From a virus: 56,326 bases of DNA. Where the stretch lies: positions 1 through 56,326 of IMG/VR virus record IMGVR_UViG_3300016665_000747. One strand, written 5' to 3'. Below, piece by piece: positions 32,716-36,691 of the stretch; positions within the stretch are counted from its first letter, which is position 1; every line of letters begins with the position of its first letter. The notes under the pieces were generated by a model. The model was not told the origin of the DNA. It made no database searches and was given only the letters and a program-made list of their open reading frames with translations. A program made the translations under genes and the position numbers.

Positions 32716-33747
32716 ATGGCAAAACAACAAACTTATACGGAATCGTACCACAACCAGCTATGCAAACTTTACTCATTTAAGGAAGAAAAAGCCCGCTATC
32801 GTAAGAGTTATATTGAATGGGACAAGATAAAGAGGGCTAATCAAAAGATTAAGCCAATTCGTCAAAAGTCTTTTTTTCTTAGCGATAAAGCAGCTAAATT
32901 ACTTAGTGTTATCGTAGCTAAACTGCTAAAAGATGAACGAGTATTCTTAAATCATAAATATATTTCCACATTTACACTTGTTGAAAGAAGACAGAATATA
33001 AGGATTATTGAAGAGCTAGCGGATATATTAGATATTTCTTACCATAATTCTATCACTTATAACGGCAAAAAATATCGGTTTAGTTATGAGTTTGGTTATA
33101 AGATGCAAAACCTTGAAAATACAGCTTTCGTAGAAAATTCTATCGTGACATTTAAGTCCCAAGAAAACGACCCTCTCTATATATATAATAAAAATAAAGA
33201 TATTGAAGATATAGATCTGCAATCTAATTTTTTACAAAATTCTGAAAGTTCAATTTTTCCTAAAAAACCTACCAAGCTAAAAACTAGACCTGCTAACGAG
33301 CGGAAAAAACCGACTAACGCCGAGCGTAAGGCAAGAATTTACCGGTTTAACCAGTACAGCGAGCCTCAAGGATTAAAGCACCATTACCCACTAAACAAGG
33401 ATGATAGTGCCAAGTTACAAAGCTTGTCAGGGCGAGACTTTAGCCTAAATGCGATGAATGAGATACTCCTGGATATGTCAAAACGGAAAGATAACCTGTT
33501 CTGCTCTAAAGCTCAATTTATGGCATATTTTGGTAAATGTCTGCGATTTGAGATGCGGGATGCCGTGGCGACTAGCAATGACAACTTCCGCATAAAAGCT
33601 AATATCATTGAGGAGGAAGTTCCGAAAAAACCTAAGATATTCAACGATGCGGAGCTAAAAGCCTATGACCTAGAGAATAGAACTACTGATGGTTTTCAAA
33701 GGCTATCGCCCCTTGGAATACTAGACAAATTGAAATTTAATAATTAA
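32716..33747 (+). CDS. Initiator-like protein, paralogue of 42938-44218
   Basis: An ungapped ~45-aa block, VFLNHKYISTFTLVERRQNIRIIEELADILDISYHNSITYNGKK, aligns with IFIDHDWISEITDCLTDQNLNLLKQLSDIFHFDYHRFIIFEGEK at about one third identity. Both proteins have basic linkers and similar C-termini. Confidence 0.4.
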   Translation: MAKQQTYTESYHNQLCKLYSFKEEKARYRKSYIEWDKIKRANQKIKPIRQKSFFLSDKAAKLLSVIVAKLLKDERVFLNHKYISTFTLVERRQNIRIIEELADILDISYHNSITYNGKKYRFSYEFGYKMQNLENTAFVENSIVTFKSQENDPLYIYNKNKDIEDIDLQSNFLQNSESSIFPKKPTKLKTRPANERKKPTNAERKARIYRFNQYSEPQGLKHHYPLNKDDSAKLQSLSGRDFSLNAMNEILLDMSKRKDNLFCSKAQFMAYFGKCLRFEMRDAVATSNDNFRIKANIIEEEVPKKPKIFNDAELKAYDLENRTTDGFQRLSPLGILDKLKFNN

Positions 33748-33756
33748 GGAGATTTT

Positions 33757-34134
33757 ATGAGCATTCATCCAAAAGAGTTAGTTAAAAACGACTACAAATA
33801 TTTCAAAGCGGTTATAGGCGTTTTAAGTAAAGAATTTGATTATTTGGGGAGACCAAAGGAAGTACTATCATTGAGCAAAGTATCTCAAATCACTAAAGGC
33901 AATAAGCCTGTTGCCGATTATATTATGATCGATAAAAATAAAACAACGGAATGTTTGTTTGAAATAGCACGTCATGGTCTAATCAATCAGGCAATCTCGT
34001 TTTACGGCAAAATTCTTGATTACAAGGAGGTGCAATTATATGACGGGATGAGTTTATTGAAGAACGAATCTTACTGCAAAATTGGATACATTAAAAACCT
34101 AAGGATTGGTTTTGAGAAGAAAGGAAAGAAATAA
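33757..34134 (+). CDS. Hypothetical protein
   Basis: 125-aa ORF 9 nt after the initiator-like gene. Confidence 0.5.
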   Translation: MSIHPKELVKNDYKYFKAVIGVLSKEFDYLGRPKEVLSLSKVSQITKGNKPVADYIMIDKNKTTECLFEIARHGLINQAISFYGKILDYKEVQLYDGMSLLKNESYCKIGYIKNLRIGFEKKGKK

Positions 34135-34141
34135 TATTTTT

Positions 34142-34291
34142 CTATTTAAAAAGTGCAATTAAAATAGCAAAATCAGTTACTAAAATACTTATAAAAAGTA
34201 ATGTAATAATCCATTCTAAAAGATCAGATTTTAACTCTAAAATGGCTAATTTAAGATCATTTTTAGTTGCTAATTTATTATTTTCATCCAT
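34142..34291 (-). CDS. Tail-anchored 49-aa membrane peptide, not in the ORF track
   Basis: [49 protein letters not shown]. Its ATG lies 8 nt inside the 3' end of vapD. Confidence 0.45.
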
Positions 34292-34574
34292 TCTTTTTCA
34301 CTATCTCGGTAAAATCTGACCAGTCTTCTACCTTAAAAGCTCTAATATCCCGTACTGAATCAGAGAACCACTGAACATTAGATAGTTTATTAATTACCTT
34401 GTAAACAGTTGTAAGGTCGTTTTTTTCATTTTTTGAAAGATAAAGACTGCCCTGTGTTCCAATAAAGCCTAAATCTTCCATCATGGCTCTAATTTCATCA
34501 TAAGCTTTATTATAAGGCTCGCCGTAATGTTCCTTTAACTTTGCTACTTCCATGTCGAATGATATTGCGTACAT
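34284..34574 (-). CDS. vapD: VapD (Cas2-like endoribonuclease, virulence-associated protein D)
   Basis: [10 protein letters not shown]...[24 protein letters not shown]...[29 protein letters not shown] matches VapD end to end (MYAIAFDL...GF...QGSLY...VRDIRAFRIEQWSDFT). Confidence 0.85.
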
Positions 34575-34587
34575 AATGTTTTACCAT

Positions 34588-35406
34588 TTAATTCTCGTCT
34601 TGTGGATCGTATGTATCCTCTCCATACAACCTAGTAATTTTGTATAGATTTGGGTTATCGTGAATATAAGAAACCTGAACATCTACTATATAACCTAAAT
34701 CTTGCCAGTTTTTATTAGGAAATTTTATATTAGATGACATAGCAAGTATTTGATCATTTTCATTATCAAAAATTACTTTTTTAGGTTTTTTATCAATTTC
34801 GGGAATTATAACTTTACCGCTATTACTATCATGTTTATCATTAAAATTAGCACTTGCCCAATACATTAAAACCTTAGAGTATTGTTTTGGTTGATCTTCC
34901 ATTAAATCTCCTGATTTTTTATTTAAACCATTTTGTATTGCATTTGCCTTTGTAGAATCAATGGTAATTATATTATTGATGATAGTATTATTGTTCCCTT
35001 TAACATCTATTACTAAATTGCTTCCATAATCATTTGCGGTTGGATTTATTATATCTGATAACTCTATAAAATCCTTTTTAGTTAATATATATTTTGTTTC
35101 TTTTGCAGTACCTAAAAAAAAGTCATAACAACTTTTTAAATAAGAACTAAATTCTATAATAGAATTTGCTTGATTAATTGTTTCCATAACTACAGGAATT
35201 AATTCCGCATATATAGAACCGCTTTCTAATTTTGATATATATAGTTTTCTTTGGTTTTTATTATAATCAAAGGAATCACTTCTTTTTAAAAAAGTGTCAT
35301 ACTGATTACCTAAAGCATTTAAAGAAGCAGTAAGTTGATTTAATTCAACAGGTTGATTGTTATTTAGTTTTATAGTTAACTTCACTTCATTATCTATATC
35401 TGTCAT
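34588..35406 (-). CDS. Orphan 272-aa protein upstream of vapD
   Basis: Very AT-rich, N/I/K-rich ORF with no motif I can recognise. It ends 13 nt upstream of vapD and starts 57 nt downstream of the resolvase gene. Confidence 0.55.
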   Translation of the reverse strand: MTDIDNEVKLTIKLNNNQPVELNQLTASLNALGNQYDTFLKRSDSFDYNKNQRKLYISKLESGSIYAELIPVVMETINQANSIIEFSSYLKSCYDFFLGTAKETKYILTKKDFIELSDIINPTANDYGSNLVIDVKGNNNTIINNIITIDSTKANAIQNGLNKKSGDLMEDQPKQYSKVLMYWASANFNDKHDSNSGKVIIPEIDKKPKKVIFDNENDQILAMSSNIKFPNKNWQDLGYIVDVQVSYIHDNPNLYKITRLYGEDTYDPQDEN

Positions 35407-35463
35407 ATTACCCTAATTTAAACTATTTTTCCTCACCATAGCACTAAACTAAGGTTAGTTCTA

Positions 35464-36075
35464 TTAAAGTTTTAGACGTTTAGTTGCACGCTCTCGCAGT
35501 TCGCCTGTAGGACTGACGTACTGATATAGTGTATTTCTCGTGATCTTCAGCTCTTTGCACAGATCACCTACGGAAGTATCACGATTTTTCATAGCTACTT
35601 CGGCAAGGCGTACTTGTGCCTTACTTAACCTAAATTTTCTTCCGCCGTTTGTTCCTCTAGCTCTAGCAGCGGCAAGCCCTGCTTTGATTCTTTCGCTAAT
35701 TAAATCGCTTTCAAACTCTGCGAGCGAGGCAAATATTCCAAAGGTCAATCTTCCTGCGGCAGTAGTTGTATCAATTTGAGCACCTTGCCCTGATAAAATG
35801 CGAAAACCTATATTACGCTTAGTAAGATCGGTGATCGTTTTAACTAGGTGTGACAGATTACGACCTAATCTATCTAATTTCCAGACTACTAAGACGTCAT
35901 GTTCCCGAAGAGATTTTAGGCAAGCTTCCAATCCCGGTCTTTTGTCATTTCTTCCTGAGGCATAATCTTCGTAGATGTACTCTTGTTGAACTCCGTGTGC
36001 TTTTAAAGCATCCAGTTGGAGATTTGTTGTTTGAGAGCCGTCTGCCTTTGAAACTCTTACATATCCTACTAGCAT
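35464..36075 (-). CDS. Small serine recombinase (TnpR/Hin-type resolvase/invertase)
   Basis: N-terminal GYVRVSKADGSQ (catalytic Ser), then VVWKLDRLGRN, GIFASLAEFE and a C-terminal HTH (GDLCKELKITRNTLYQYV). At 203 aa it is resolvase-sized. Confidence 0.9.
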   Translation of the reverse strand: MLVGYVRVSKADGSQTTNLQLDALKAHGVQQEYIYEDYASGRNDKRPGLEACLKSLREHDVLVVWKLDRLGRNLSHLVKTITDLTKRNIGFRILSGQGAQIDTTTAAGRLTFGIFASLAEFESDLISERIKAGLAAARARGTNGGRKFRLSKAQVRLAEVAMKNRDTSVGDLCKELKITRNTLYQYVSPTGELRERATKRLKL

Positions 36076-36160: not shown

Positions 36161-36293
36161 ATTCATAGTATCGTAAACTACTTATTTAATAAGTGACAAA
36201 TTATATAAAATTACGGACTTGTACGTTTTTCTTTATTTTTTTTGTAAATTCTCCAATGCCTGAGTTAATATGGCGATAAAGGCATTTTTTGCA

Positions 36294-36468
36294 GAAAAAC
36301 GCAGGAAAAACGCGCGTTTTAAATGAAAACGCACTTGACCTCTGTTTATGAGATTTCGGAATTAAGAAAATCGCAACTTTTCCTTATTGACACTCGCAAA
36401 GCCTTATTACATAAGGGTTACAGGTTGCAGAATTGAGAAAATCGCAGCGAACTACACTAAATCGCAAA
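36294..36468. repeat. Six dispersed direct copies of GAAAA(A/T)CGCA-like motif (iteron-like array)
   Basis: gaaaaacgca (36294), gaaaaacgcg (36305), gaaaacgca (36325), gaaaatcgca (36366), gaaaatcgca (36437) and taaatcgca (36459), in a locally GC-richer non-coding stretch. Confidence 0.6.
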
Positions 36469-36554
36469 AAAAGTCAAAAAATGAATTTTGTTTCTTGGGA
36501 ATGAAATTTATTCTTTTACCAGTAAAACCAGTCTACATATAGTGTAGAGGATAG

Positions 36555-36585
36555 CCGAAAATCTCATATTCGACACCGAAAATCT
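36555..36585. repeat. Two direct copies of CCGAAAATCT spaced 21 bp
   Basis: Copies at 36555-36564 and 36576-36585. An inverted near-copy (agatttcgg) lies at 36351-36359. Confidence 0.6.
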
Positions 36586-36682
36586 TTTGTTCGCTCACAC
36601 TTTTTAGAAAAACGTATTAGAATTGTCCCCCCTTAAATATTTTTACAGTTGGTGGTGGTAAATGTGGCAAAAAATCCTCATT

Positions 36683-36691
36683 CCCCCCCCC
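36683..36691. repeat. Homopolymer C9 (with a C6 at 36627-36632)
   Basis: Counted directly. Both tracts are followed by similar AT-rich strings (ccttaaatattttta / ccgcaattttta). Such tracts are unusual in this AT-rich replicon. Confidence 0.85.

Follow-up and report, generated by a model that had tools for sequence, protein, structure and literature searches.

A recurrent vapD–DUF1640-like gene neighborhood in an apparently mosaic island of a predicted Candidatus Megaera phage-plasmid

In the described VapXD, VapYD and VapWD systems, a Cas2-like VapD nuclease carried on mobile elements is encoded adjacent to its antitoxin, namely, VapX or VapY, both of SH3 fold, or VapW, a dead VapD. These partner families were distinguished in a survey of 1,132 VapD representatives, in which about 50% of VapDs had no specific associated protein and VapD-Hpy was described as stand-alone (Gilep et al., 2025, PMC11980593). 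The half of the family without a known partner includes the virulence-associated VapD of Helicobacter pylori. A second family of relevance is DUF1640/CCDC90 (PF07798), comprising bacterial membrane proteins, for which no function is known, and mitochondrial MCUR1/CCDC90B. In DUF1640 membrane proteins, a β-layer motif is present at the start of the stalk, [aliphatic]-A-T-K-[polar]-[DE] (Hartmann et al., PMC4786415). Here, the vapD locus of a predicted phage-plasmid of Candidatus Megaera polyxenophila, contained in a 56,326-nucleotide stretch of DNA (IMG/VR record IMGVR_UViG_3300016665_000747, positions 1 to 56,326; hereafter, the window), was compared with related loci, which are numbered with the prefix L. 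A preliminary description of this DNA had delineated four minus-strand open reading frames (ORFs) at the locus, all of which were confirmed, as follows:

35464–36075, minus strand: small serine recombinase of the resolvase/invertase type, 203 residues (PF00239, phrog_125)
34588–35406, minus strand: p272, a 272-residue member of PHROG 9226, of unknown function
34284–34574, minus strand: vapD, encoding a 96-residue Cas2-like VapD nuclease of the HP0315 (stand-alone) type (matches PDB 3UI3 and 6ZN8)
34142–34291, minus strand: p49, a predicted 49-residue, N-terminally truncated DUF1640/CCDC90-like tail-anchored coiled-coil protein, so assigned from its homologues, a motif and a deletion

Comparison with the related loci revealed that these four genes are not one conserved unit. 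With a probability that we place at about 0.7, the region that holds them is a mosaic of independently assorting cassettes rather than a four-gene system. Among the relatives, vapD and a DUF1640-like gene recur side by side. The arrangements encountered were as follows:

L010–L014 and L028: Phd/YefM-PIN, resolvase, p272 and then IS1595; 84% identical to the window, with homology ending exactly at the p272 stop codon
L015–L018 and L030: Phd-PIN, resolvase, a 78-residue ORF, p272 and vapD, with no 49-residue ORF; homology ends at the vapD stop codon, identity to the window is 92.4% for p272 plus vapD and about 81% for the resolvase
L029: p272 and vapD at 92% nucleotide identity, with flanks of about 80% and neither a resolvase nor a 49-residue ORF
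L027: p272, vapD and p49, 100.0% identical over 1,344 bp in a blastn alignment (34143–35486, minus strand), with flanks of 84–95% identity
L046, L051, L053–L056 and L150: no p272; the resolvase precedes vapD by 130 nt
Megaera plasmid CP113873.1: vapD alone

The preliminary description had instead proposed a single co-evolved VapD addiction or abortive-infection operon formed by the resolvase, p272, VapD and p49, with p272 in the position of the antitoxin. The layout lends itself to such a proposal, given that the genes lie head to tail, with gaps of 57 nt between the resolvase gene and p272 and 13 nt between p272 and vapD, and an 8-nt overlap of vapD and p49 (ATGGATGA), that four related backbones share the 13-nt gap, with conservation being higher across the p272–vapD block than in the flanking DNA, and that VapX, VapY and VapW are all missing from the locus. 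The distribution of the components, which swap independently among relatives, largely refutes it. Co-occurrence of p272 and vapD in a neighborhood survey had been set beforehand as one test of the proposal, and p272 was found beside vapD only within its own lineage, at identities of at least 94% (L015, L018, L027, L029), and in none of 15 or more other p272 lineages; conversely, vapD was found without p272 in 26 of 30 close contexts. The p272 homologues without vapD (29–75% identity) stand alone, with no vapD within 4–5 kb, in settings as unrelated as phage recombination and lysis modules, chromosomes of metagenome-assembled genomes of Rickettsiales and Holosporales, a Bordetella phage (beside BrnT), the N. 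gonorrhoeae chromosome (beside HicAB) and prophages of Deferribacteraceae. In L010–L014, resolvase and p272 are present without vapD, and the resolvase is itself replaced or absent elsewhere, with an opposite-strand IS605-type TnpB taking its place in L027 and no resolvase being present in L029, while p272 and vapD are kept in both. Moreover, p272 resembles neither VapD, VapW nor any solved antitoxin, and an upstream antitoxin of 272 residues would have no precedent among VapD partners (PMC11980593). A co-evolved four-gene operon is, as such, most improbable, and p272 is shown by its distribution to be an independent phage accessory gene and not a VapD antitoxin, removing what would have been a false lead.

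Two observations weigh against a mosaic of freely assorting cassettes. First, the p272 and vapD block shows 92% identity where the flanks show about 80%, meaning that these genes travelled together at least once. Second, the short spacings and the lack of any predicted terminator between the four genes fit co-transcription, such that the four may well be co-transcribed in this element; a scan of the transcription unit for promoters and terminators was uninformative either way, returning 16 hits where 14.8 were expected, i.e., chance level. The 1,344-bp block of p272, vapD and p49 points to a recent en-bloc exchange, since it is 100.0% identical to the block in L027 while the flanks reach only 84–95%.

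As to VapD itself, the preliminary description had called the protein an unmistakable VapD lacking VapX, and this was upheld. Over residues 1–93, it matches both HP0315 of H. pylori (PDB 3UI3; E = 1.2e-35) and the VapD of H. influenzae (PDB 6ZN8; E = 1.7e-22), and it is also detected by the PADLOC Cas2 model (E = 9.6e-10). The match to NCBIfam NF041506 is full-length (E = 1.4e-15) yet, at 57.5 bits, lies under the 100-bit equivalog cut-off; because similarity to the solved structures shows the protein to be a VapD, that model appears to be narrower than the family. Asp7 and Ser43, corresponding to the catalytic Asp7 and Ser (~43) named in earlier work (PMC11980593), are invariant in an alignment of 14 VapDs that includes HP0315 and the H. 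influenzae protein. The window is thereby predicted to encode a catalytically intact, HP0315-type nuclease, with activity presumed from the solved homologues. HP0315 is the closest solved match, is of the same length, shares Asp7 and Ser43 and likewise has no VapX-, VapY- or VapW-type partner. It differs in that vapD is here a mobile cassette carried by a phage-plasmid in a Rickettsiaceae endosymbiont, and in that a DUF1640-like membrane protein gene often precedes or follows vapD, an arrangement not reported for HP0315.

None of the known partners was found at the locus. When VapD was used as a phmmer query against all ORFs of the loci, only vapD itself was returned, with no VapW-type second VapD being detected. 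Neither VapX nor VapY was identified, VapY being ruled out by size and fold only. In the distant vapD loci considered as a positive control, no small upstream ORF looked VapX-like, and the absence of VapX therefore rests on PDB searches, fold and size. The possibility that p49 is VapX-like was rejected, as its only PDB match is a designed channel peptide, with no VapX chain being retrieved, and p49 is a helical transmembrane peptide. The preliminary description had treated the missing VapX as an anomaly; because some half of VapD homologues, VapD-Hpy among them, stand alone (PMC11980593), a VapD without VapX is ordinary. Indeed, on Megaera plasmid CP113873.1, a 288-bp match of 91.7% identity covers vapD alone, among unrelated genes, and the distribution shows that vapD travels by itself, as a cassette of one gene, and that the lack of a partner is tolerated.

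The 49-residue ORF had been presented as an untracked ORF with an amphipathic helix and a C-terminal transmembrane segment. The ORF proved to be real, with the described transmembrane segment and overlap with vapD; it is not, however, a new peptide but appears to be a truncated member of a Pfam family. Homologues of p49 were found in four further contexts in which the upstream genes differ; homologues P0173–P0176 are 67–86% identical and each lies directly after a gene for a 96-residue VapD, with the same 8-nt overlap. In other relatives, including L018, the gene following vapD is full-length, encoding 79–105 residues, and is joined to vapD at –4, –1, +1 or +5 nt. These longer forms comprise an N-terminal head (MAISNTHTKIKKLI..G.TEEQAE), an (L/M)(A/V)TKxDL coiled coil and a C-terminal transmembrane segment. 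Aligned to positions 2–66 of the PF07798 profile, one of them scores 35.6 bits (cut-off, 33.5) and four others reach 19–30 bits, and their nearest annotated relatives are proteins designated as DUF1640 domain-containing on Megaera plasmids. DNA alignment of p49 with the full-length form of L048/L057 revealed a clean deletion of about 103 nt that removes the first ~31 codons, and with them the N-terminal head, and creates the junction AATGGATGA. What is left has LATKND, corresponding to the β-layer motif, at residues 7–12, together with a short coiled coil and a C-terminal transmembrane segment, the last ~22 residues being hydrophobic (mean Kyte-Doolittle value of 2.7 over 17 residues). Thus described, p49 in all likelihood arose by deletion from a DUF1640-like gene for a tail-anchored coiled-coil protein, having kept the β-layer motif, stalk and transmembrane segment of the family and differing from it in the lack of the head; p49 itself does not match PF07798.

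Selection on the two genes was considered by Nei-Gojobori analysis of the five alleles sharing this deletion. The ratio of the proportions of nonsynonymous to synonymous differences (pN/pS) is 0.03 for vapD (pS of 0.32), about 0.26 for the N-terminal half of p49, a value based on small counts, and 0.6–0.9 for the transmembrane tail, which is hydrophobic throughout. Because p49 has diverged homologues, all of them after vapD, and because of the low pN/pS of its N-terminal half, it is more than a chance ORF. A VapD–p49 fusion generated by frameshifting was also considered from the sequence and set aside; TAG and TGA stop codons lie right upstream of the p49 ATG, and no recognized +1 shift site is present.

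The membrane component anticipated in the preliminary description was borne out in the wider survey, in that a DUF1640-like transmembrane protein recurs beside VapD. A DUF1640-like ORF adjoins vapD in 11 of 30 contexts of the close clade, in five of 10 contexts at 75–84% VapD identity and in two of 60 distant contexts, these being mostly from gut and rumen. In the 56-kb window, p49 is the only DUF1640-like ORF. Across 31 close-clade vapD loci (137 kb), the distance to vapD is no more than 30 nt for 15 of 19 DUF1640-like ORFs and no more than 405 nt for the remaining four, while related loci lacking vapD (241 kb) contain none. Loci L036, L042, L057 and L125 present vapD sandwiched between two such ORFs. 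The adjacency is kept at VapD identities of 60–84% and DUF1640-like identities of 31–43%, whichever of the two genes comes first and with varied neighboring genes, as in L064 (after IS200/IS605 tnpAB), L065 (after an HsdS-like gene), L145 (another phage) and L135/L171. The pairing is, accordingly, real as a recurrent and tightly coupled neighborhood in one VapD subclade, and DUF1640-like genes are the only neighbors that recur beside that subclade.

Could the DUF1640-like protein, here p49, be an essential type II antitoxin of VapD, i.e., a fourth family beside VapX, VapY and VapW? The tight, overlapping two-gene arrangement, found in either order, and the restriction of the association to a subclade (16 of 40 contexts at VapD identities of at least 75%) would be expected of such a pair. 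Yet VapDs that are 95–99% identical are kept with no DUF1640-like neighbor, for example on a complete Megaera plasmid, and because such near-identical VapDs occur without the gene, its product is unlikely to serve as an essential antitoxin. In addition, it would be unusual for an antitoxin to be anchored in the membrane by its tail, and p49 lacks the head domain.

A considerably stronger competitor, to which we assign a likelihood not far below even, holds that VapD stands alone and that p49 is a non-functional DUF1640-like remnant, clipped when a vapD cassette landed beside it, with the adjacency being positional only. Much of the survey can be read in this manner and weighs against a vapD–DUF1640-like pair. 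In the close clade, 19 of 30 vapD contexts, including the complete Megaera plasmid, have no DUF1640-like neighbor, and near-identical VapDs are among those lacking one. Likewise, vapD is present in only three of some 11 distinct viral loci that carry a DUF1640-like gene. At least six islands hold the DUF1640-like gene with no vapD, convergent to the backbone gene p343 (described below), and in several viral contigs and Megaera plasmids, it occurs by itself at this same position. Because several islands carry it alone, the gene is a common resident of the island, and its place beside vapD may be due in part to both genes using one insertion slot. Decay is also evident, with p49 lacking the N-terminal head recognized by the Pfam model, its transmembrane tail evolving in a near-neutral manner, the downstream copy in L045 being broken after MDENNK and followed by unrelated sequence, and that in L057 stopping before the transmembrane segment. 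VapD-Hpy-type proteins are, moreover, known as stand-alone proteins (PMC11980593). Finally, L060 and L064 have retained genes (SpoT-like or MFS) that are typical of this Rickettsiales island, so their backbones are perhaps not fully independent. A mere remnant does not, on the other hand, readily account for the same deletion allele persisting in five diverged backgrounds with its frame open and with the constraint noted in its N-terminal half, for four tight forms of the junction (–8, –4, –1 and +1/+5 nt) that each keep the genes coupled, for an adjacency that outlasts the divergence of both proteins and changes in gene order, or for all DUF1640-like ORFs of the vapD loci lying within about 400 nt of vapD.

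With the evidence so divided, functional coupling of vapD and p49 is plausible, at something under even odds. We tentatively propose, with less assurance than in the coupling as such, that the VapD subclade and the DUF1640-like tail-anchored coiled coils together make up a two-component module, previously undescribed, on phage-plasmids of Rickettsiales. In such a module, a membrane-anchored and probably trimeric coiled coil would tether or gate the VapD oligomer, serving as a modulating or tethering partner and not as an essential antitoxin, while vapD and p49 would be translationally coupled through the ATGGATGA overlap. Like the VapXD, VapYD and VapWD systems, the locus combines a Cas2-like VapD on a mobile element with a small adjacent gene; in contrast to their adjacent SH3-fold or dead-VapD antitoxins, the recurring neighbor here is non-obligatory and is a helical coiled-coil protein with a tail anchor. 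If the proposal is correct, then membrane tethering would represent a logic different from that of the soluble VapX, VapY and VapW antitoxins, and the module would offer the first functional handle on both the bacterial DUF1640 proteins and the stand-alone VapDs.

The novelty is modest, consisting of a candidate pairing of vapD with a DUF1640-like gene on phage-plasmids of the Megaera type, of which the window appears to hold a truncated allele. Neither the text nor the supplements of the VapD survey mention DUF1640, CCDC90 or transmembrane partners (PMC11980593), and in a literature search, no report was found in which VapD was connected with Rickettsiales or with a tail-anchored or DUF1640 protein. 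The recurring membrane-anchored neighbor in one VapD subclade provides a concrete candidate partner for a nuclease family of which about half lack a known one, and the adjacency gives bacterial DUF1640 proteins their first genomic context.

The 272-residue protein, although first regarded as an orphan, belongs to PHROG 9226, with residues 2–261 aligning to profile positions 6–255 of 261 (E = 4.5e-40), i.e., over its full length. Beyond 22 close homologues, the family counts 677 representative clusters at E ≤ 1e-3 and 378 at the stricter E ≤ 1e-10, and members of these clusters are nearly all full-length, at about 260 residues. It is thus end to end a PHROG 9226 protein, the adjacency to vapD being peculiar to the lineage of the window. 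An AlphaFold2 model generated from the family alignment predicts an alpha/beta protein (predicted local distance difference test score, 79; predicted template modeling score, 0.66). The structure search proposed earlier for this protein yielded no significant fold when the model was compared with the PDB by Foldseek, with only weak, generic ferredoxin-like matches (E ≥ 0.03, TM-score < 0.3), while matches in BFVD were limited to uncharacterized phage proteins and one DUF6575 protein. Searches of Pfam, NCBIfam and PADLOC gave no match for p272 or for the product of p49, a Pfam scan of 138 members of the p272 family gave scattered single matches with no consistent domain, and the family profile matched no PDB sequence at E ≤ 1. 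The idea of p272 as a hidden VapW-like homologue of VapD was rejected, given that hhalign comparison of the family with the VapD alignment returned a probability of 0.1%.

Members of PHROG 9226 present their own local associations. A small ORF runs 4–8 nt into the beginning of the PHROG 9226 gene in several lineages (L015, L029 and L040, where it is the 78-residue ORF; L008, 4825–5004; L021, 1131–1277; L033, 3723–3995; and the contig of P0019), the copy in the window having no such partner. In one lineage, a gene with a SocA/Panacea domain, of antitoxin type, lies 145 nt upstream of the PHROG 9226 gene. There are hence hints that PHROG 9226 proteins themselves take part in two-gene modules. 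PHROG 9226 genes of 70% identity were also found in L002 and L003 (GCA_013573075.1 and GCA_013566075.1), 42-kb phage-like contigs from assemblies in which contig numbering exceeds ten million, presumably eukaryotic genome projects that captured the phage of a symbiont.

The assignment of the upstream gene to the TnpR-like serine resolvases, made in the preliminary description, agrees with matches to PF00239 (E = 2e-43, residues 3–142) and to phrog_125, annotated as DNA invertase (E = 3.6e-63). The N-terminal Ser motif reads YVRVSKADGSQ, and a C-terminal HTH_7 domain was detected below threshold (E = 6e-4; 20.3 bits, cut-off 23.8). In L010–L018, the resolvase is 92–94% identical. The enzyme most likely resolves plasmid multimers or drives local site-specific recombination for an episomal prophage. 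It is a neighbor of the cassette slot and not an obligatory part of the genes downstream. A res-like motif, CCGAAAATCT, was not enriched upstream of the resolvase gene (six occurrences where 4.9 were expected), and a search for inverted repeats around the cassette block, or for an invertible segment, gave nothing convincing. The alignment of 14 post-resolvase junctions did bring out one element:

35447–35460, minus strand: palindrome AACTAA-CC-TTAGTT, located just past the resolvase stop codon

Some 30 nt around this palindrome are common to all variants, beyond which two alternative sequences lead into different cassettes; it is possibly a recombinase or operator site at the cassette junction.

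Other features of the junction were seen only in relatives. The sequence just past the resolvase stop codon was considered in L010, L013, L053, L055, L061, L128 and L132, and many relatives proved to have an insertion of 34 nt there that contains a perfect palindrome of 16 bp, CGTATACTAGTATACG. This insertion is absent from the window; it too is a possible recombinase or operator site. Where the island lacks p272, the resolvase is separated from vapD or the DUF1640-like gene by a conserved and relatively GC-rich spacer of about 70 nt, GGGTAAG...CTTACCC (L046, at ~2370–2440, L036, L053, L055, L056, L132 and L150, with none in the window). This spacer can be drawn as a closed multi-hairpin fold with one compensatory pair (CUGC/GCAG versus CCGC/GCGG); the fold is weak (z = –1.8), and no tRNA or Rfam element was found in the spacer or in the island. 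Upstream of the resolvase, L010–L018 carry a Phd/YefM-PIN (VapBC-type) toxin-antitoxin pair. At the corresponding position in the window (36240–36660), this slot is taken by about 330 nt without long ORFs, containing direct repeats (36351–36375/36422–36446 and 36555–36572/36576–36593) and a terminator-like hairpin (36334–36312).

Turning to the replicon, family scans of the window identified genes for a large terminase, a portal, a tail-fiber-like protein, RecT and a RecE/YqaJ-like exonuclease. The large terminase (TerL, 133–1716) is 93–94% identical to terminases of circular Candidatus Megaera polyxenophila plasmids of 57, 64 and 109 kb (CP113870.1, of 57,422 bp, CP113869.1 and AP017967.1), and a partition-related match lies at about 41.0–42.6 kb. 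Two further genes border or occupy the island:

32716–33747, plus strand: p343, a 343-residue backbone gene forming the left edge of the island, with similarity to DnaA-like initiators
33757–34134, plus strand: variable island gene of 125 residues and unknown function, convergent with the 49-residue ORF across a 7-nt gap

The product of p343 is 68–79% identical to Megaera plasmid proteins (tblastn), the paralogues of which are annotated as DnaA-like or replication initiator proteins. DNA homology to pPCS109, at about 86%, runs across the RecT/YqaJ/MarR/p343 module and ends at ~33,700, the end of p343. Because phage genes, plasmid-type terminase relatives and similarity to DnaA-like initiators coincide, the label of phage-plasmid given in the preliminary description is correct, and the window can be taken, from its gene content, as a complete-looking tailed phage-plasmid of about 56 kb from Candidatus Megaera polyxenophila, a Rickettsiaceae endosymbiont of ciliates and algae. 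The four ORFs lie in a hypervariable accessory/maintenance island of about 3 kb (~33.75–36.66 kb) beside the DnaA-like initiator gene. The 125-residue gene is 70% identical in L010–L012, missing from L015 and L027, and matched no family in Pfam, NCBIfam, PADLOC or PHROG.

The maintenance region of phage P1 combines Cre-lox multimer resolution, with Cre being of the tyrosine recombinase type, and the phd-doc addiction module. By analogy, the window would be an episomal prophage in which toxin-type modules and a site-specific recombinase lie close to the replication functions. Unlike Cre, this recombinase belongs to the small serine recombinases. The likeness extends to the Phd/YefM-PIN pair directly upstream of the resolvase in relatives, while the window has a vapD cassette and no Phd-PIN. 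A cassette-shuffling island beside a replication gene, in an obligate intracellular symbiont, should be useful for following the turnover of addiction- and defense-type genes in reduced genomes.

Several lesser observations concern the island and its surroundings. Truncated vapD fragments are found about 1.3 kb upstream of intact vapD (L052, 1190–1297; L159/L160, 403–489) and are read as remnants of cassette turnover. Elements of the IS1595, IS605 and IS256 types also occupy the island in various relatives, and genes for group II intron reverse transcriptase/maturase lie near vapD islands in a metagenomic relative (L038/L039, 906–2306) and in a Megaera plasmid (L001, 9262–10962). Upstream of the island in the window, an AT-rich intergenic/backbone stretch contains tracts of nine (36683–36691) and six (36627–36632) G residues on the minus strand, which are candidates for slipped-strand variation or assembly uncertainty. 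Finally, relatives of the window of 55–60 kb are common in freshwater metagenomes and in IMG/VR.

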